DNA of 13,189 nt from a virus: IMG/VR virus record IMGVR_UViG_3300035498_001035, positions 1-13,189 of that record. One strand, given 5' to 3'. Numbering within the stretch: position 1 is the stretch's first letter; each line of letters starts with the position of its first letter. Below, piece after piece: positions 1 through 6,470 of this stretch. Below the pieces are notes generated by a model that saw nothing but the letters and a program-made list of their open reading frames with translations, was not told the origin of the DNA and made no database searches. Made by a program: the position numbers and the translations under genes.

Positions 1-1267
1 CACAACTTAATCTATCTTTCGAATAGCAATCTGCAAGTTTACTATCAAATTTTAAAACTTTCTCTTTCTTTTTCTTTTCTTTATCTCTAACAGCTTCTCT
101 AGCTTTCTTTGCGGCTTCCCTCGCTTTACGAGCATTAATCGACTTATCAAAAATTTTTTTAATTTCTTTTTCATTAATTTCAAATAATTCTTTTAATGCT
201 TTAGTAGAAAATTTTTGAACATAAGTTCTTCCTTCAGATGAGCTTAATTCTTCTTTATTTTGTCCTTTAAAAACTGGGTCAATCATTTTAAAATTAATAA
301 TTAAAAGTTGTCCTTCTTCAAAATCTGAGCCTTGAAGATTTTCATCTTTATCTTTAAGCCATTTTTTTTCTTTTGCGAATGTATTTAAAGTTGATGTAAA
401 GGCCGTTTTAAAACCAGTTAAATGAGTACCTTTATTTTGAGGAATATTATTTGTATATAATTTTACTATCGAATTATATGAATCATTATATCCAAAAGCT
501 ACTTCTACTTGAAAAGTGCCTTCATTTTCTTCAAAATAAAAAGGCGAACAAATAAAATTTTTATTTTTATTAAGATATTCAAGATAATCATAAAGTCCAT
601 TATTAGAAATATAAGAATTTTTTTCATCAAGTTCTTCATCATATAAAGTAAAAGTAAGTCCTTTACATAAAAAACTAAATTCTTGAATTTGAGTTTTTAA
701 TCTTTTTGCATCAAATTTAACCTCTTCAAGATATTTTGAATCTGGATAAAACTGTACTTGAACGCCACTTGTTTTTTTATCTTTAAAATCTTCTATAGTA
801 TGAGAAATTTTTATTCCATTTTTAAAATATATTTGTTCTATTTTCCCATCTCTAATAGATTGTACAAACATTTTACTAGAAAGTGCATTTACACATTTAG
901 CTCCAAGACCGTGCATCCCACCAGCTGAATTATATCCGCTTTGTCCTGTTGCATTAAGAAATTTACCTCCCGCATGCTCTTCTGTAAAACAAAGTTCTAA
1001 TGCAGTTTTTCCATTTTCTTTTTGCCCAATCGGAATTCCTCTTCCATTATCAGAAATTTTTAAGCTTCCATCTTTAAATAATACTAAATCAATTTTAGTG
1101 CAGCTACCATTTAAATACTCATCTATACTATTTGAAATAATTTCTTTTGCTAAATGATGAAGTCCATCTATATCTTTTGAACCTATATACATACCGGGAT
1201 ACTTTCTAACAGCTTCAAAAAAATTTAATTTTTGAATAGTATCTGTTGTATAACTATTATTTGTCAT
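1..1267 (-). CDS. gyrB: Type IIA DNA topoisomerase subunit B (GyrB / ParE / T4 gp39-like); N-terminal ATPase and transducer domains. Partial: the C-terminal Toprim part lies beyond the window start.
   Basis: ATG at 1267..1265. I translated all 422 codons by hand and found no stop. GHKL/GyrB signature motifs are present: FEAVRKYPGMYIGS, GLHHLAKEIISNSIDE, DNGRGIP, EEHAGGKF, GGMHGLGAKCVNALS, YLEYLNKNK, NNIPQNKGTHLTGF, QNKEELSSSE, and ARKAREAAKKAREAVR...KLADC (the linker into Toprim). Not in the ORF track because its stop is outside the window. Confidence 0.9.
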   Translation of the reverse strand, partial: MTNNSYTTDTIQKLNFFEAVRKYPGMYIGSKDIDGLHHLAKEIISNSIDEYLNGSCTKIDLVLFKDGSLKISDNGRGIPIGQKENGKTALELCFTEEHAGGKFLNATGQSGYNSAGGMHGLGAKCVNALSSKMFVQSIRDGKIEQIYFKNGIKISHTIEDFKDKKTSGVQVQFYPDSKYLEEVKFDAKRLKTQIQEFSFLCKGLTFTLYDEELDEKNSYISNNGLYDYLEYLNKNKNFICSPFYFEENEGTFQVEVAFGYNDSYNSIVKLYTNNIPQNKGTHLTGFKTAFTSTLNTFAKEKKWLKDKDENLQGSDFEEGQLLIINFKMIDPVFKGQNKEELSSSEGRTYVQKFSTKALKELFEINEKEIKKIFDKSINARKAREAAKKAREAVRDKEKKKKEKVLKFDSKLADCYSKDRLSC

Positions 1268-1304
1268 AATTATATTATTTTCCTTTCTTTTATATAATAT
1301 TAAA

Positions 1305-2135
1305 TTATATAATAAATTTACTTGTTTCTAATTTTAAATCTTCTATACATAAATTGTTATAATGTGTATAAGGTATTCTTATTAAAGGAATATTATTATC
1401 TTTGCACCATTGATTTTTAAATTTATCTCGTTCTTGTGTTTTTAATAATTTTTCAGTACCAGTTTCTTTTTGACTTCCAAAAGACATAGGATAAAAATGT
1501 TGTTCTCCATCATATTCAATTAAATATTTATTATCAATATAAAAATCAAATTTTGCAAAATAATTAGTATTAGGAAAAATACAAGTGTTAAAAGTTTTTT
1601 CTTTAATAAAAGATAAATTATTTTGTTTCAATAAATTTTCTATTTTTAATTCTCCCTTACTAATATTTTTATAACAATCACATGGATTATTACCTCGATT
1701 TCTTTTTAAGGAAATTAATTGGGAGGGAATTTCTTTAAATCTTTTACCACATTTTTTACATTCTATAACCCAATATATTCCACAAGCATTTTTTTCATTT
1801 GTTGGTTCTATAAATTTATAAAAAGGATTATCTATTTTTGAATAATCTTTTGAATAAGATTTTTTTCCAATTTTTTCACACATTTTTTTATGAAGCTCTT
1901 TATTATAACATCCGCAGGATTTAGTAGAGCCATTTCTAAAAGCATTTAATTTTAATAAAGTATAATTACCACATTTACATTTACAAATTATAGTAGCTCC
2001 TCTTCCCGATTTTGGAGCAGGTCCTCTATCACACACGGTGAGCATTCCATCAGGATTTGTTTCTCCGATTTTTACTGAAGACTGTCCTATTGGGATTGAT
2101 TGTACTTGAGTTCCATCTTTTAAAATATATAACAT
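1305..2135 (-). CDS. Free-standing homing-endonuclease-like protein. Two Cys-rich zinc-binding-type repeats sit N-terminal to a C-terminal DUF559/Vsr-like PD-(D/E)XK nuclease fold.
   Basis: Complete ORF of 276 aa, ATG at 2135, TAA stop, RBS GAAAGG. The N-terminal half has two similar Cys clusters (CKCKCGN...STKSCGC and ECKKCGKRF...NPCDC). The C-terminal ~80 aa (FDFYIDNKYLIEYDGEQH ... ERD ... NIPLIRIPY) fits the D...(I/V)E.DG..H ... R ... (I/V)R pattern of DUF559/Vsr-type endonuclease domains, which are common in phage homing-endonuclease genes. It sits in the intergenic slot between rnh and the topoisomerase gene. Confidence 0.5.
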   Translation of the reverse strand: MLYILKDGTQVQSIPIGQSSVKIGETNPDGMLTVCDRGPAPKSGRGATIICKCKCGNYTLLKLNAFRNGSTKSCGCYNKELHKKMCEKIGKKSYSKDYSKIDNPFYKFIEPTNEKNACGIYWVIECKKCGKRFKEIPSQLISLKRNRGNNPCDCYKNISKGELKIENLLKQNNLSFIKEKTFNTCIFPNTNYFAKFDFYIDNKYLIEYDGEQHFYPMSFGSQKETGTEKLLKTQERDKFKNQWCKDNNIPLIRIPYTHYNNLCIEDLKLETSKFII

Positions 2136-2254
2136 AATTTTATACCTTTCTTTTTTAAATATATAAAATTTAATATATTTATATTATTTAATGTTACCCA
2201 AATTTTATCTTGGGATAATATAAAATAAATATTTACAATTTTTTATTATAATTA

Positions 2255-2283
2255 ATTATATCATATTTTATAAAATTAGTCAA
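2255..2283 (-). promoter_or_regulatory. Sigma-70/SigA-type promoter candidate, TTGACT-N17-TATAAT, reading into the HEG-like ORF and gyrB-like gene.
   Basis: On the minus strand the -35 is TTGACT (2283..2278), the spacer is 17 nt and the -10 is TATAAT (2260..2255). It lies immediately downstream of the RNase H stop. AT-rich DNA produces chance matches, hence the moderate confidence. Confidence 0.35.
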
Positions 2284-2288
2284 TTTTT

Positions 2289-2777
2289 TTATATTAATCC
2301 TTGTAAAGTAGCATTATTTATAATTTTGGCAATTTTAGTTTTATTATTAGTAGCAAGTGCATCTGCAAGTTCATTTTCTAAAATTCCACAATGAGATTTA
2401 CAATGGATTACTTGACAATTAAAAAAATCTATGGTAAGATAATTATAAAGAGATTTAATTAAATCAATATTTTCTATTTGTTTCTTTTTGCTATTTATCC
2501 AATTATTCTTTGCCCATAAATATATCCATGAATTACATATATTAACACAATATGCAGAATCTGAATATATTAAACAAGTTTCATTTTTAAATCTAGTTTG
2601 TGCTAATTCAAAAGCTAAAAGAATAGCTTTTAATTCAGCTTGATTATTAGTAATAAGAGGTTCTTGAACATTTTCACAATCAATTATTTTTTGAGTTTCT
2701 TTATCTTTTATTACAATAGCATAACCACCCGGACCGGGATTACCTTTACTACTTCCATCAGTATAAATTTCTATCAT
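2289..2777 (-). CDS. rnhA: Ribonuclease HI (RNase H type 1)
   Basis: 162 aa. Motifs YTDGSSKGNPGPGGYA, TNNQAEL.A, YSDSAY, WAKNNW and HCGILENELADALA are the canonical RNase HI catalytic DEDD region and basic protrusion. ATG at 2777, TAA stop. Confidence 0.9.
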   Translation of the reverse strand: MIEIYTDGSSKGNPGPGGYAIVIKDKETQKIIDCENVQEPLITNNQAELKAILLAFELAQTRFKNETCLIYSDSAYCVNICNSWIYLWAKNNWINSKKKQIENIDLIKSLYNYLTIDFFNCQVIHCKSHCGILENELADALATNNKTKIAKIINNATLQGLI

Positions 2778-2840
2778 TTTTTTTAAACTATCCTTTCCTA
2801 TTTTATAATAATTGAGTAAGCTATTTTTTATTTCATTCTT

Positions 2841-2869
2841 ATTATAATATAATTTTTGAAGAAAATCAA
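2841..2869 (-). promoter_or_regulatory. Promoter candidate TTGATT-N17-TATAAT upstream of rnhA.
   Basis: Minus strand: -35 TTGATT (2869..2864), 17-nt spacer, -10 TATAAT (2846..2841). It sits between the endolysin terminator and the rnhA start. The same architecture recurs at 6409..6437 and 11266..11294. Confidence 0.35.
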
Positions 2870-2890
2870 ATACCTTTACTAAAAATTAGT

Positions 2891-2926
2891 TAAAATAAAT
2901 AAAAAAAATAAGTGAGTAGCAAAATG
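2891..2926 (-). terminator. Rho-independent terminator, read on the minus strand, ending the lysis-cassette transcript.
   Basis: Perfect 11-bp inverted repeat aagtgagtagc (2900-2910) / gctactcactt (2916-2926) with a 5-nt loop. On the minus-strand RNA it is followed by A-U8-AUUUAUUUUA (complement of the a8 run at 2891-2898). It starts 14 nt after the endolysin stop. Confidence 0.7.
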
Positions 2927-2939
2927 CTACTCACTTATA

Positions 2940-3713
2940 TTACACTTTCTCAGTATACTTTAAAGAAATCCAACCGGCACCTGATTTTAACTTACCCCAA
3001 CCATTATTTTCTTGAACAATAGTATAAGTACCTTTATCAGTAATTTTACCAACAATAGGATAAGTAGTCCCAGCACCACTTCTAATATTTAAAATACTTG
3101 CGGTTACCTTGACTTTATACGCGGAAGTTGAGGTAGAAGAAACTTTAGCTGGAGTTGAAGTTGCACTAACCGACACCCCGCTCAATTTATTTGTCACCTC
3201 TTGTGCTAAATTGCCCATTTTATTATACATCCAGTCGCCAGGACATGACTTTGCGGCAAACCATCTATGAACTGTTAATAACATTTCATCATCTTTTGGA
3301 GTATAATTTAATGCAGTATTTTTATTTTCAATCCAAATTAATTTAGTTTTATTATATCTTTTACAGATATCTATACATAAATTAATTAATGAATTATATA
3401 CTTTATCATTAAAAGCATAAGGGGCGGTTTTATCTGACGCACATTCTATTGTAATAGCCCTTTGGTCATTATCATTATTTGAACTACACCAAGAACGATT
3501 ATTTTCATCTACACAAAGAAGAATCCTACCATCTGTGCCTATGCCATAATTACAACTAGCTTGTCTACTTGAATTAGCAAAAGTATTTCCTAAACTTTCT
3601 ACACTTAATTGACCTACAACACAATGTGGAGTAATTCTATCAATTTTATGTGTTCTAGTTCCACTATGATTAGGGCTTAATTTTGTGTAATTAACTAAAC
3701 TACTTTTACTCAT
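2940..3713 (-). CDS. Endolysin: N-acetylmuramoyl-L-alanine amidase (Amidase_2/PGRP fold) with a C-terminal SH3b cell-wall-binding domain.
   Basis: 257 aa with a strong RBS AAGGAGA. The N-terminal domain aligns with CwlA/T7-lysozyme-type amidase_2 (ITPHCV, NYGIGTDGRI, NRSWCSS, ITIECAS, VHRWFAAKSCPGDWMY). A Ser/Thr-rich linker follows. The C-terminal stretch LNIRSGAGTTYPIVGKI...GWGKL..GWISLKY is a typical SH3_3/SH3b domain. Confidence 0.85.
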   Translation of the reverse strand: MSKSSLVNYTKLSPNHSGTRTHKIDRITPHCVVGQLSVESLGNTFANSSRQASCNYGIGTDGRILLCVDENNRSWCSSNNDNDQRAITIECASDKTAPYAFNDKVYNSLINLCIDICKRYNKTKLIWIENKNTALNYTPKDDEMLLTVHRWFAAKSCPGDWMYNKMGNLAQEVTNKLSGVSVSATSTPAKVSSTSTSAYKVKVTASILNIRSGAGTTYPIVGKITDKGTYTIVQENNGWGKLKSGAGWISLKYTEKV

Positions 3714-3728
3714 ATTAATTCTCCTTAA

Positions 3729-4073
3729 TTATTTATTTATATAATTTTGTAAATTTGAATTTTGTTCTAATATATTTTTAAATTCGTCTAAAACTTCATC
3801 TACTAAATTGCTAAAATATTCAAAAGAAATAATTTTTGAAAGATATGGAAATTTAGTTAAAAACATATTATATACATAACTAAGCTTAATTTGTCCAGTT
3901 CCTGAACCTAATTCTTTTTCTGCTATAGTTACTGCATAAAGTAACCATTCTTTTATTTTTGCAATTTGTTCTGTTTTTGGGGTTTTTATAAAAATATAAA
4001 TTTCATATCCAATTGCAGCAATAGCCGCAATAATTATAATAATTAAAACCCAATTAGAAATTAAAAATTCCAT
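3729..4073 (-). CDS. Holin, LL-H-family-like (single N-terminal TM helix).
   Basis: 114 aa. N-terminal TM helix WVLIIIIIAAIAAIGY, then YAVTIAEKELGSGTGQIKLSYVY, which resembles the conserved AE..G.G.G..K motif of Holin_LLH proteins. It lies immediately upstream of the endolysin with a 15-nt gap. RBS AAAGGAGA. Confidence 0.5.
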   Translation of the reverse strand: MEFLISNWVLIIIIIAAIAAIGYEIYIFIKTPKTEQIAKIKEWLLYAVTIAEKELGSGTGQIKLSYVYNMFLTKFPYLSKIISFEYFSNLVDEVLDEFKNILEQNSNLQNYINK

Positions 4074-4087
4074 AATATTTATCTCCT

Positions 4088-4492
4088 TTATCCTACAATA
4101 TTATCATTATTATTATTTATTTCAAATTGTTTCATTGCTATATCATATGTAATTCCATTTTTAGTATTTTCTTTAGTAGATTTTAAAGCGTAGATAGCAA
4201 AAGAAAAAATTTCTCCTATTGTAACTCCTATTAATGTAGTTAATGGAGAAAAATCAGGAGCTAAATTGGTATATTTTGCTAATTGCAAACTTTGAACAAC
4301 AGTCCAGCCAGTAAATAATTCAATAATAGTACAATTTATAAATAAAAATAAAATTAATAATTTTGTTGTAGTAATTTTTTTCTTTTTATGTAATTCTTTT
4401 TTTTCTTCATCTATTTTTTGTTGTCTTTTTATTAAATCCTTTTTAGCAGCCCACAGTTCCTCTTCTTTTTTTATTTTTTTCTCATTTAACAT
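4088..4492 (-). CDS. Lysis-cassette membrane protein of unknown function. It has a charged coiled N-terminus and two TM helices, and could be a holin partner, antiholin or other lysis regulator.
   Basis: 134 aa. Lys/Glu-rich N-terminal 40 aa, then two hydrophobic helices (LLILFLFINCTIIELFTGW and LTTLIGVTIGEIFSFAIYAL). It is the first gene after the 4586-4614 terminator and the promoter candidate. RBS GGAG. Confidence 0.45.
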   Translation of the reverse strand: MLNEKKIKKEEELWAAKKDLIKRQQKIDEEKKELHKKKKITTTKLLILFLFINCTIIELFTGWTVVQSLQLAKYTNLAPDFSPLTTLIGVTIGEIFSFAIYALKSTKENTKNGITYDIAMKQFEINNNNDNIVG

Positions 4493-4548
4493 AAATGTGA
4501 TATCTCCATTTTTTTTAAATATAAACTTTTATAAGAAATATTAAATTC

Positions 4549-4577
4549 ATTTTAGATAAATTAATCACTTTTGCCAA
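4549..4577 (-). promoter_or_regulatory. Promoter candidate TTGGCA-N17-TAAAAT for the lysis cassette.
   Basis: Minus strand: -35 TTGGCA (4577..4572), 17-nt spacer, -10 TAAAAT (4554..4549). It lies about 55 nt upstream of the ORF 4088-4492 start and just downstream of the 4586-4614 terminator. Confidence 0.3.
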
Positions 4578-4580
4578 ATA

Positions 4581-4614
4581 AAAAAAAGAAGTTAATATAA
4601 AATATTAACTTCTT
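4581..4614 (-). terminator. Rho-independent terminator read on the minus strand; possibly bidirectional.
   Basis: Perfect 13-bp inverted repeat aagaagttaatat (4586-4598) / atattaacttctt (4602-4614) with a 3-nt loop. On the minus RNA it is followed by U7 (complement of a7 at 4581-4587). The plus-strand side is also T-rich. It overlaps the TAA stop of ORF 4605-4889. Confidence 0.6.
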
Positions 4615-4889
4615 ATTTTATTAATTTTTTCTTGTAATTCTTTACTATTGCCAGTTCCGCTATGTCCAAATATCATGCCAATAACACTAATTACTCCACA
4701 TATTAAAGGAATTGAATCTGGGCTAATATTAATATGTAATAAAGCTAATCCAGCACAAAAAGTTACTCCAAAAATTTTCTTAATGAATATTCCAATTATC
4801 CAGCCTTCAGCAAAAGATAAAATAGAAATAATTATAGCACAAAGAATTATTGCAATAACCATAATTAGAAAAATAGCAAATATTTCCAT
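4605..4889 (-). CDS. Small 3-TM membrane protein, possibly a class-I-type holin or other membrane factor.
   Basis: 94 aa, three hydrophobic helices and a charged C-terminal tail (NSKELQEKINKIRS). RBS AAAGGAG. It is followed directly by the terminator. The plus-strand ORF 4648-4917 is its shadow. Confidence 0.45.
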   Translation of the reverse strand: MEIFAIFLIMVIAIILCAIIISILSFAEGWIIGIFIKKIFGVTFCAGLALLHINISPDSIPLICGVISVIGMIFGHSGTGNSKELQEKINKIRS

Positions 4890-4894
4890 TTATT

Positions 4895-5428
4895 TTAATA
4901 AGCTCCTTTCTTATTGATATCTTCAATAATAGTATTTAAATTAACAGGATAGCAATTGTGGGCATCCATATTTACATTATAAGTATGTGGCACGTCGCTC
5001 CATTTATTTTGACTATGAGTATGTCCATGCAGGCTATAAATAAATTTCTTTTCACCCATATTTGCAACTAATTGCGGATAATGACTTAAAACAAAAGTTT
5101 TTTTACCTACTTTAATACGATATCCCATTTGAACATCTTTAATGTTTTTAATAGTTTTGAATAACTTCTCGCGGGTATCCGTATCATGGTTCCCTAGAGC
5201 TAAAATAATATTCCCATTAAGTTGGCTTAATAATTTTAAACCTTCTTCATTATTGCCTAGCATAACATCTCCAAGATGATACACAATATCATTATATCCT
5301 ACAACAGAGTTCCATCTTTCAATAATTGTTTCATTCATTTCTTCAATACTATTAAAACCACGTGGCTTCCAGATAAAATCCTTATTATGCGCCAAATGAG
5401 TGTCACTAGTAAGCCAAATTTCTGACAT
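4895..5428 (-). CDS. Calcineurin-like metallophosphoesterase; likely the phosphatase partner of the adjacent polynucleotide kinase.
   Basis: 177 aa. The motifs SDTHLAH (D-x-H), GDV, GNHD and HGHTH are the metal-binding motifs of the binuclear metallophosphoesterase fold. Perfect RBS AAGGAGGA. Its start is 19 nt downstream of the pnk stop. Confidence 0.8.
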   Translation of the reverse strand: MSEIWLTSDTHLAHNKDFIWKPRGFNSIEEMNETIIERWNSVVGYNDIVYHLGDVMLGNNEEGLKLLSQLNGNIILALGNHDTDTREKLFKTIKNIKDVQMGYRIKVGKKTFVLSHYPQLVANMGEKKFIYSLHGHTHSQNKWSDVPHTYNVNMDAHNCYPVNLNTIIEDINKKGAY

Positions 5429-5446
5429 TTTTATTCCTCCTTATAA

Positions 5447-5968
5447 TTAATTAATATAAATTTCATCTTTAATAATATTAGCGTTTATACGACATTGAAT
5501 AGGTTTATTATCTTCAATTATATAAATTTTGTTAAATCCTTCATCAAAATCTGGTGCTTCAATATTACCATACATGCGGCGAAGCTGGTTTTCAGGAACA
5601 TATGACCGAGTTCCCGCGCGATTTGCATTTCTATTGATGCACTCTTCTAATGGAGTTTTTATCCATATAACTTCAATTGAACTAGGCTTGACTGTAATAT
5701 TTCTTAATAACTTATTTCTTGAACTTCTATTTAAATGAGTTGCATCTGCAAAAACATTATATCCAGCTTTTAAATTCTCATTAATTTGTCTTATATATTC
5801 TGCATATACTTGCTTTTCTTTTGAAAAATACTCTTCATCTTCTGACACCATAGAAAATCTAATTTCGTCACGAGAAATATATTTGTCAGTTTCAATATTC
5901 ATATGATTTCGAGTCCATGTACTCTTACCAGCACCTGGACATCCCATTAACATATATAAATTACTCAT
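5447..5968 (-). CDS. Polynucleotide 5'-kinase, T4 Pnk kinase-domain homolog (P-loop; kinase domain only, no fused HAD phosphatase).
   Basis: 173 aa. Motifs align with the T4 Pnk N-terminal kinase: GCPGAGKSTWTRNH (Walker A, GCPGSGKSTWAREF in T4), ISRDEIRFS (INRDDYRQS), FADATHLNRSSR (ISDTNLNPERR), RNANRAGTRSYVPENQLRRMY (RNSKRGTKAVPIDVLRSMY). Confidence 0.85.
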   Translation of the reverse strand: MSNLYMLMGCPGAGKSTWTRNHMNIETDKYISRDEIRFSMVSEDEEYFSKEKQVYAEYIRQINENLKAGYNVFADATHLNRSSRNKLLRNITVKPSSIEVIWIKTPLEECINRNANRAGTRSYVPENQLRRMYGNIEAPDFDEGFNKIYIIEDNKPIQCRINANIIKDEIYIN

Positions 5969-5969
5969 A

Positions 5970-6371
5970 TTACCAACCTCTATTCAATAAATTTTTTGTT
6001 TCATCATTAGGATTGTCTTTTAAGATTCGATGCCCGCATGAATAATCACCTTTTGAGTTCCAACATTTACCAGACCTATTGTATTTACAATCTGTCTTTG
6101 AACAACTTAATAATTCTGCTACAGGAACTTTTTCTCCATTTACAAATCTACCTAAACGGAACTCTTCTTGAAAATCTTCTAATCTATATGCCCCGAAAGG
6201 ACGAATTTCTGCGTGATTGGTCGTTTTTTGGCATTCCAAGCAAAACATTTTTTTCAAATGCCCAGCTTCTCTTTGTTTACCAACTTGTCGAGGTACCATT
6301 ACCCCTTCTTTTCCACACTCAGTACAAAACATTCTACTAATTGTAAAACCATTATTGTTCTTTTTCCCCAT
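5970..6371 (-). CDS. Cys-rich zinc-ribbon protein of unknown function.
   Basis: 133 aa. N-terminal CxxC...(~20 aa)...CxxC ribbon (FCTECGKEG...HLKKMFCLECQKTTNH) with a loose resemblance to bL33-type ribbons. The C-terminus has a second Cys/His cluster (CSKTDCKYNRSGKCWNSKGDYSCGH). ATG at 6371, RBS GAAGGT. Its stop lies 2 nt upstream of the pnk start. Confidence 0.5.
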   Translation of the reverse strand: MGKKNNNGFTISRMFCTECGKEGVMVPRQVGKQREAGHLKKMFCLECQKTTNHAEIRPFGAYRLEDFQEEFRLGRFVNGEKVPVAELLSCSKTDCKYNRSGKCWNSKGDYSCGHRILKDNPNDETKNLLNRGW

Positions 6372-6408
6372 TTATTATCATACCTTCTTTTTCTTATTTT
6401 ATAAATAT

Positions 6409-6437
6409 ATTATATAATATTTTTTTAATAAAATCAA
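6409..6437 (-). promoter_or_regulatory. Promoter candidate TTGATT-N17-TATAAT upstream of the Cys-rich/pnk/phosphoesterase block.
   Basis: Minus strand: -35 TTGATT (6437..6432), 17-nt spacer, -10 TATAAT (6414..6409). It is about 38 nt upstream of the ORF 5970-6371 ATG and partly overlaps the foot of the MVP terminator hairpin. Confidence 0.35.
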
Positions 6438-6470
6438 AAAGAATGATATTTCTATCATTCTTTTATCATT
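6437..6470 (-). terminator. Intrinsic terminator candidate immediately after the MVP-homolog stop.
   Basis: Perfect 12-bp inverted repeat aaaagaatgata (6437-6448) / tatcattctttt (6453-6464) with a 4-nt loop. On the minus RNA the stem ends in UUUU and is followed by UGAUUUUAUU. AT-rich stem, so moderate confidence. Confidence 0.5.

Follow-up and report, generated by a model that had tools for sequence, protein, structure and literature searches.

Free-standing homing endonuclease genes (HEGs) of phages have been described in several settings. In phage T4, mobA lies between 60.1 and 39 and has gene 39 as its target, and a promoterless-cassette pattern has been reported for seven free-standing HEGs of that phage (PMC2988022). 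HEGs of the ICP1 type combine a T5orf172 nuclease with CapR/DUF723/DUF4397 zinc-finger repeats, and nuclease genes have been found at boundaries of genetic exchange (Barth, Dunham and Seed; PMC10055350 / PMC10448857). I-Bth0305I (PDB 3R3P) belongs to the EDxHD family, which has free-standing members and in which Hef of phage U5 has been placed (PMC3239194). The subject of the present analysis is a 276-aa open reading frame (ORF) in a 13,189-nt stretch of IMG/VR record IMGVR_UViG_3300035498_001035, which is referred to below as the window; coordinates are window positions unless a relative, designated by an L-number, is named. The ORF very probably represents a free-standing Vsr-like (EDxHD-type) HEG with two zinc-finger-like DNA-recognition modules, and it lies directly upstream of a gyrB-like topoisomerase gene whose 5' part appears to have been exchanged together with it.

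The window HEG is a known kind of element with a somewhat new combination of domains. Like MobA, SegF, SegG and MobE of T4 (PMC2988022), it is free-standing and adjoins an essential gene of DNA metabolism, which for MobA is the gene for the topoisomerase large subunit; the location of MobA beside topoisomerase gene 39 is the closest analogy of place. T4 free-standing HEGs are likewise promoterless and use an upstream resident promoter, and their flanks are co-converted during homing. They differ from the window HEG in that their nucleases are of the HNH or GIY-YIG type rather than Vsr-like, in that the phage lineage is unrelated, and in that the flank apparently co-transferred in the window amounts to a whole module of ~370 codons that is ~31% identical to the one replaced. 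ICP1-type HEGs share with the window HEG repeated CxxC...CxC zinc-finger modules fused to a nuclease and a position beside essential genes at the edge of a recombined block, but their nuclease is T5orf172 (GIY-YIG-related) whereas that of the window protein is Vsr-like. The gene for I-Bth0305I resides in a group I intron of recA, whereas the window gene is free-standing and 5' of a topoisomerase gene; I-Bth0305I has NUMOD/helix-turn-helix (HTH) DNA-binding motifs where the window protein has two Cys4 clusters, it has no detectable sequence similarity to the window protein, and the first Glu of its motif is unconserved in the window clade. What I-Bth0305I and the EDxHD family are predicted to have in common with the window protein is the Vsr-like catalytic fold. 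E. coli Vsr (PDB 1CW0), DUF559/NGO0050 (3HRL) and DUF2726 proteins give no profile-level sequence match to the window protein. Vsr itself is a mismatch-specific repair nickase with a Zn site inside its domain, whereas the Vsr-like domain of the window protein is attached to distinct DNA-binding modules, in a gene that behaves as a mobile element. A literature search turned up no characterised member of the family that joins zinc fingers to a Vsr-like domain.

Empty-site alleles, exchanged block and promoter

The HEG ORF is intact at 1305..2135 (-), starts with ATG and has a ribosome-binding site, GAAAGG, 9 nt 5' of the ATG. Its identification is based on the ORF call, PHROG matches, 5662 homologues and an AlphaFold2 model. 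All long ORFs of the window are on the minus strand. Upstream of the HEG is rnhA (RNase H) at 2289..2777 (-), which matches Pfam RNase_H at 3.8e-29, and downstream is the N-terminal part of the GyrB-like topoisomerase gene at 1..1267 (-), which runs off the window and matches DNA_gyraseB (9.7e-43), HATPase_c (4.8e-10) and phrog_543, "DNA topoisomerase II large subunit" (5e-72). A 37-nt spacer at 1268..1304 (-) separates the HEG from the topoisomerase gene and carries the topoisomerase ribosome-binding site AGAAAGGAAAA. These Pfam and PHROG assignments bear out an earlier sequence-only reading, made without database searches, that had placed a 276-aa ORF between rnhA and a gyrB-like gene; the span 1305-2283 that it singled out consists of the ORF, its leader and a promoter, with the gene on the minus strand. 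The HEG is free-standing in that it forms a separate ORF with its own ribosome-binding site between that promoter and the topoisomerase ATG, with no intron or intein, and rnhA and the topoisomerase gene are each uninterrupted at the locus. No difference in guanine-plus-cytosine (GC) content was found between the cassette and its surroundings; genome GC content is ~24%.

The sequence-only reading had also framed the locus as T4-like, which did not hold. A megablast search of the whole window against 50,697 phage records gave no match, and relatives were therefore found through proteins; the nearest records are uncultured faecal phages at ~42% aa identity. The full downstream context is supplied by contig L040, which has 99.96% identity to the window and in which the topoisomerase is 642 aa long and comprises HATPase_c, DNA_gyraseB, Toprim and GyrB_C domains. 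The ORF 3' of it is unannotated in L040 and 99.5% identical to that of the relative L014, and its counterpart at sister loci is GyrA-like. The topoisomerase of the window lineage has a two-gene gyrB/gyrA arrangement of bacterial type, unlike 39/60/52 of T4.

Empty-site alleles, which had been anticipated from the sequence, exist in three near-identical relatives that have no HEG, namely L014 (an IMG/VR contig of 139.6 kb), L001 and L027, with flanks that are 96.6-99.5% identical. Window positions 2242-10211 match L014 at 98.8% nucleotide identity; over window and L040 together, identity of the rnhA-side flank to L014 is 96.6-98.8%, and on the far (topoisomerase) side positions 2272-4499 of L040 match L014 at 99.46% (all by blastn). 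Between these flanks, blastn across ~148-2241 found no nucleotide similarity to L014. The exchanged block at 148..2241 (-), as delimited by blastn against L014, measures ~2.09 kb and contains the leader, the HEG, the 37-nt spacer and the first ~370 topoisomerase codons; its counterpart in L014 is ~1.1 kb long, unrelated-looking and without an HEG, and encodes a different topoisomerase N-terminus. The expectation that the rnhA-topoisomerase junction would be cleaner in HEG-less relatives is correct as regards absence of the HEG, but the block that differs also swaps these first topoisomerase codons. Protein comparison with L014 defines the "W-type" ATPase/transducer module of the GyrB-like topoisomerase at 148..1267 (-), which was apparently co-transferred with the HEG. 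The topoisomerases of the window and L014 have ~31% aa identity over residues 1-363 and 39% over the whole 422-aa alignment, and are 99-100% identical from residue 364 on, with identity beginning at DKSINARKAREAAKK...

The crossover on the topoisomerase side falls between positions 128 and 148. The part of the topoisomerase gene shared with L014, 1..147 (-), starts with a relatively GC-rich linker that is identified by its nucleotide conservation and holds the crossover site; the linker stretch at ~95-147 (-) corresponds to ~9078-9130 of L014 and encodes DKSINARKAREAAKKARE. It is near-identical to that of L014, has 72-81% nucleotide identity to nearly all related loci, and is conserved across phages whose flanking topoisomerase modules share just 30-75% protein identity. 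N- and C-terminal modules of the topoisomerase appear to have been joined repeatedly at this linker. At its rnhA end, the block breaks off ~12 nt past the -10 box of the promoter. Mismatches to L014 number 8, 10, 9 and 4 per 250 bp over 2242-3241 (3-4%) and 0-1 per 250 bp over 3242-5741, and on the topoisomerase side 8 of 12 mismatches fall within the first 79 bp, so that mismatches are denser close to the block, over ~1 kb towards rnhA and over ~30-80 bp in the topoisomerase gene. Raised divergence in both flanks is the pattern expected of a conversion tract.

The sigma-70-type promoter, TTGACT-N17-(TG)TATAAT at 2255..2283 (-), matches the consensus at 11 of 12 positions, has a TG before the -10 box and is the top-scoring site in the window. 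The window has one match to a strict pattern, TTGAC-N18-TATAAT, where 0.06 would be expected; 11 of 200 shuffles also reach one match. The promoter was thus correctly recognized from the letters, but its attribution to the HEG as the gene's own promoter was not upheld. It belongs to the flank shared at 98.8% identity with HEG-less L014, where 32 nt separate it from the topoisomerase ATG downstream, and HEG-less relatives retain it 25-40 nt 5' of that start codon. An A-tract/TTGnnn/N17/TATAAT layout occurs upstream of the topoisomerase gene in HEG-less L014, L001, L016, L018, L031 and L035, and also upstream of a decayed HEG in L013; many related loci have a strict promoter match no more than 100 nt from the topoisomerase start, nearly always on the coding strand. 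Because the promoter lies in the shared flank and is conserved in HEG-less relatives, the HEG is, on comparison of these loci, a promoterless cassette that uses the operon promoter and separates this resident promoter from the ribosome-binding site of the topoisomerase gene. Its position downstream of the operon promoter would make it the first transcribed gene of the topoisomerase operon, and the promoter presumably now drives the HEG and, by read-through, the topoisomerase gene. A candidate internal topoisomerase promoter inside the HEG (1537..1509, 10 of 12 matches) was rejected as being at chance level in AT-rich DNA.

The HEG leader at 2136..2254 (-) is 119 nt long, is missing from L014, and by comparison with that relative is cassette-borne except for its first ~13 nt (2242-2254). 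It contains a conserved 21-nt element, CAAG-N6-7-TTKGG-TAAC, at 2192..2212 (-) (CAAGATAAAATTTGGGTAACA), which was recognized by comparing HEG leaders and lies ~60-75 nt 5' of the HEG start. The strict pattern occurs once per locus, only in the HEG leaders of 6 lineages, and none of the other loci compared contains it; if looser forms in 3 further lineages are counted, 9 of 13 HEG-bearing lineages carry the element. Other occurrences are at 5917-5932 in L042, 3923-3938 in L046, 3918-3933 in L049 and ~3917 in L053, and in the leaders of L054, L161 and L162. An exact-pattern scan of IMG/VR gave 17 matches, of which 4 are HEG leaders and the others were judged to be chance. The element may be a protein-binding operator, a short RNA signal or a small hairpin. 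The RNA fold of the leader (2110-2248) is no better than that of shuffled sequences (z = -0.73), and a CCCAA/TTGGG hairpin is only partly kept in sister loci, with uncompensated changes; a structured RNA was rejected on these grounds.

Domains and predicted fold of the protein

The HEG protein belongs to a large family. The protein database holds 5662 homologues at E<=1e-5, and tblastn against isolated phages found 641 HEG-family copies in 425 records, often several per genome, with most copies in phages of Staphylococcus, Enterococcus, Streptococcus, Bacillus and Lactococcus. Some of these copies are annotated "homing endonuclease" and one "group I intron-associated VSR homing endonuclease". 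PHROG matches are to phrog_559 (5e-32), which is named "HNH endonuclease", and to phrog_9084, "homing endonuclease" (2e-22). The HNH label, which many GenBank annotations also carry, was rejected for the window protein: the phrog_559 match covers only profile positions 212-406 of 607, the protein has no HNH motif and no Pfam HNH match at E<=1, and the structural neighbours of its model are PD-(D/E)XK enzymes.

Conservation was assessed in an alignment of 65 homologues with 39-68% identity. Invariant residues are C53, C55, C74 and C76; C126, C129, C152 and C154; and D197, E207, D209, H213, D237 and K240. The eight invariant Cys residues agree with the two Cys clusters that had been noticed in the translation. 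The first cluster (C51/C53/C55 ... C74/C76; 1908..1985 (-)) is a putative Zn-binding DNA-recognition module in which C51 is conserved in at least 90% of the 65 sequences. The second (C126-x2-C129 ... C152-x-C154; 1674..1760 (-)), defined by its invariant columns, follows the CapR-type CxxC...CxC pattern, a zinc-finger motif described for phage HEGs (PMC10055350); Pfam CapR (PF21817) matches 3 of the 65 homologues (best E 2.4e-8), with the window protein itself unmatched. No Pfam match to NUMOD or HTH domains was found, and the N-terminal part carries the two invariant Cys4 clusters.

The C-terminal part, ~aa 158-262 (1350..1664 (-)), is a predicted Vsr-like PD-(D/E)XK nuclease domain that contains the six invariant non-Cys residues. 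The AlphaFold2 model of the protein has a mean predicted local distance difference test (pLDDT) score of 94.7, Vsr is the sole notable PDB match in Foldseek, and active nucleases are the best matches among the structural neighbours. The model therefore agrees with the Vsr-like PD-(D/E)XK tail proposed from the translation, but the accompanying DUF559 label was not borne out: Pfam gave no DUF559 match, and its weak match is to DUF2726, which at 19.2 bits is below the gathering threshold of 24.7 bits in the window protein and is found in 15 of the 65 homologues at E<=0.01. Searches of all PDB sequences by phmmer and by hmmsearch with the 65-sequence profile found neither 3R3P nor Vsr, and only spurious C2H2 zinc-finger matches; when the family profile was aligned with E. 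coli Vsr by hhalign, the probability was 0.2. Because there is no sequence-level link to Vsr or I-Bth0305I, placement among EDxHD enzymes follows fold and motif, not homology scores. The EDxHD motif of I-Bth0305I comprises E170, D196, N208, H213 and D222, which correspond to E25, D51, H64, H69 and D97 of Vsr (PMC3239194). In the window protein, D197, D209 (or E207), H213 and D237 fit this motif by spacing and by their place on predicted strands and helix, with E207/D209 at the position of x, a correspondence drawn from spacing and secondary structure and not from a printed structural alignment. From the fold model and these residues, we infer that the HEG protein has nuclease activity.

Site specificity, decay and the cause of the exchange

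The close clade of the window HEG comprises 13 lineages with at least 52% identity over the full length, made up of the window, eight lineages reached from database proteins and four more IMG/VR loci. All 13 have the HEG directly 5' of the gyrB-like gene, with upstream neighbours that vary (rnhA, small ORFs, lysins or PhoH) and with spacing from the HEG stop to the topoisomerase ATG that ranges from an 11-nt overlap to 82 nt. Distant members (33-47% identity) occur elsewhere, namely between gyrB and gyrA (L061, L069, L102, L110, L113, L122), after gyrA, or at unrelated loci. A metagenome scan with the HEG protein gave distant relatives only, at 32-62% identity over the best segment, with the highest values on short partial matches. 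N-terminal topoisomerase modules fall into two deep types, W (window) and L (L014), which are ~31% identical; the HEG is found with both, and is absent from ~38 of 39 L-type and ~12 of 19 W-type IMG/VR loci. These ~12 W-type loci led us to reject the idea that the W-type module is always HEG-linked as an "immune allele".

Products of decay are present at the same site. In L013, a 46%-identical HEG copy at 2288-3055 in the same rnhA/topoisomerase slot has three in-frame stops and is a pseudogene. In L173, only the last ~35 HEG codons are left at 2871-3005 (PLIRIPYTHYNN...; ...PLIRIPYTHYNNIIIDDLLIETSDFIVKENNNE); they overlap the topoisomerase ATG and are a deletion footprint in which the topoisomerase ribosome-binding site is retained. 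Taken together, patchy occurrence, insertion at one fixed point, decay products and an expanded family are, as far as sequence comparison goes, the signature of a homing endonuclease gene. Other endonuclease families use the locus as well. A GIY-YIG/NUMOD gene occupies the rnhA/topoisomerase slot of L009 (7211-7984), GIY-YIG genes occur within or after gyrB- or gyrA-like genes in L002 (6674-7147), L028 (9435-10160), L045 (7839-8570), L046 (6770-7459), L161 (5261-5843) and L163 (5047-5802), and gyrB- or gyrA-like genes are split by GIY-YIG genes in several loci. Judged by these gene contents, the topoisomerase locus is a multi-family HEG hot spot in related phages, in line with the proposal of the sequence-only reading that it is a site for mobile endonucleases.

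The slot also holds unrelated cargo. A 331-aa multi-pass membrane protein that is permease-like is encoded between rnhA and the topoisomerase gene at 6872-7867 in L017 and at 6892-7887 in L019, and may be an auxiliary metabolic gene in the same variable slot.

It is proposed that, in a mixed infection, the HEG enzyme would break the HEG-less allele in or close to the 5' end of its gyrB-like gene. Resection of the break would proceed until homology is reached, in the promoter/rnhA region to one side and, to the other, in the conserved linker that follows the transducer domain, and repair would copy the HEG-bearing donor genome. In the window lineage, repair would have brought in the HEG together with the deeply divergent ATPase/transducer module of the donor. 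The target site, the direction of transfer and the role of the HEG as cause of the exchange are inferred parts of this scheme, and targeting of the gyrB-like gene by the HEG is plausible. A more far-reaching version holds that the clade is a dedicated "gyrB 5'-end" homing lineage that repeatedly swaps ~31%-identical ATPase/transducer modules at one linker, with the leader element serving to hold down HEG expression in an essential operon, either as operator or as RNA signal. This version is speculative and rather unlikely; if true, it would make the lineage a natural engine of domain shuffling in an essential enzyme.

Several observations weigh against an active homing endonuclease as the agent of exchange, and are considered here with the alternatives to which they relate. 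The window has a second patch divergent from L014 at 5742-7241, with up to 7% divergence (18 differences per 250 bp) and no HEG adjacent, which means that mosaic exchange also happens without an HEG; the patch is centred on a Cys-rich 133-aa ORF (5970-6371) and the 3' part of the ORF at 6471-8045, in surroundings that are ~100% identical. Such mosaicism favours an explanation in which the HEG-like gene is a mere passenger and the 2.09-kb block was swapped by ordinary homologous recombination between co-infecting phages, with crossovers at promoter/rnhA and at the linker and without cleavage by the HEG enzyme. This explanation is also favoured by the many different pairings of N- and C-terminal topoisomerase modules at loci that have or lack the HEG, and by the placement of the crossover in the most nucleotide-conserved stretch of the topoisomerase gene. 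A passenger is nevertheless improbable, because the block ends on one side exactly where the HEG cassette begins upstream, ~12 nt beyond the -10 box, because one precise position in 13 lineages with differing neighbours needs a site-specific process, and because the catalytic-type residues are strongly conserved. A further point against active homing is that comparison of HEG-bearing with HEG-less alleles of the same module type (W-type) gave no systematic nucleotide differences that would mark a protected target, in a protein-guided alignment that is imperfect near the 5' end. One possibility is that the recognition site spans the promoter/ribosome-binding site/ATG junction and is broken up by the insertion itself.

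The overlap of several sister HEG copies with the topoisomerase start codon, by 4-11 nt, suggests translational coupling and could also point to long-term residence. It would suit a domesticated, stably inherited member of the topoisomerase operon that no longer homes and acts as a nuclease against competitor or host DNA or as a DNA-binding operon regulator, as would the place of the HEG as first operon gene downstream of the operon promoter and the conserved leader element that travels with it. We regard domestication as very improbable given the sporadic occurrence of the HEG, including its absence from near-identical L014, L001 and L027 and from most loci of either module type, the existence of the pseudogene in L013 and the remnant in L173, and the presence of family relatives at many other loci. 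The nuclease assignment itself rests on the predicted fold and residue conservation, without detectable similarity to Vsr or I-Bth0305I or a sequence-level match to any characterised nuclease, and the first acidic residue of the EDxHD motif, E162 in the window protein, varies in the close clade; with the sub-threshold DUF2726 match, this could be taken to indicate that the C-terminal domain is catalytically dead and that the protein is a sequence-specific DNA binder only, i.e., a decayed HEG not yet interrupted by stops. Invariance of D197, E207, D209, H213, D237 and K240 in 65 sequences down to 39% identity, and a high-confidence fold model whose best matches are active nucleases, make a dead domain the least probable of the three alternatives.

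If the gene is a homing endonuclease gene, as we favour, one site in uncultivated phages would show the full HEG life cycle of invasion, flank co-transfer, pseudogene decay and deletion to a remnant. An essential topoisomerase would also be seen to work as a chimera with modules that are ~31% identical to those replaced. The family that combines zinc fingers with a Vsr-like domain is abundant among phages, in whose genomes it often goes under the label "HNH" or "hypothetical", and correct annotation and a defined target site for it would be useful. These findings are unsurprising to a specialist in phage mobile elements, and the locus is a clear but fairly ordinary example.

Neighbouring genes of the window

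Further upstream, a strong terminator-like hairpin with a 14-bp stem followed by a T-run lies at 2938-2908 (-), just 3' of an amidase/SH3 endolysin gene (2940-3713), and sets the lysis genes apart from the rnhA-HEG-topoisomerase unit. The ORF at 6471-8045 (-) encodes a 524-aa phage protein with a major vault protein shoulder domain (PF11978, 1.5e-22) and a Vault_3 repeat, which is unusual phage content; upstream of it, a 251-aa ORF at 8237-8992 (-) has no Pfam match. The phage also encodes a homologue of the Thg1-family tRNA-His guanylyltransferase at 9072-9902 (-) (PF04446, 2.3e-32).

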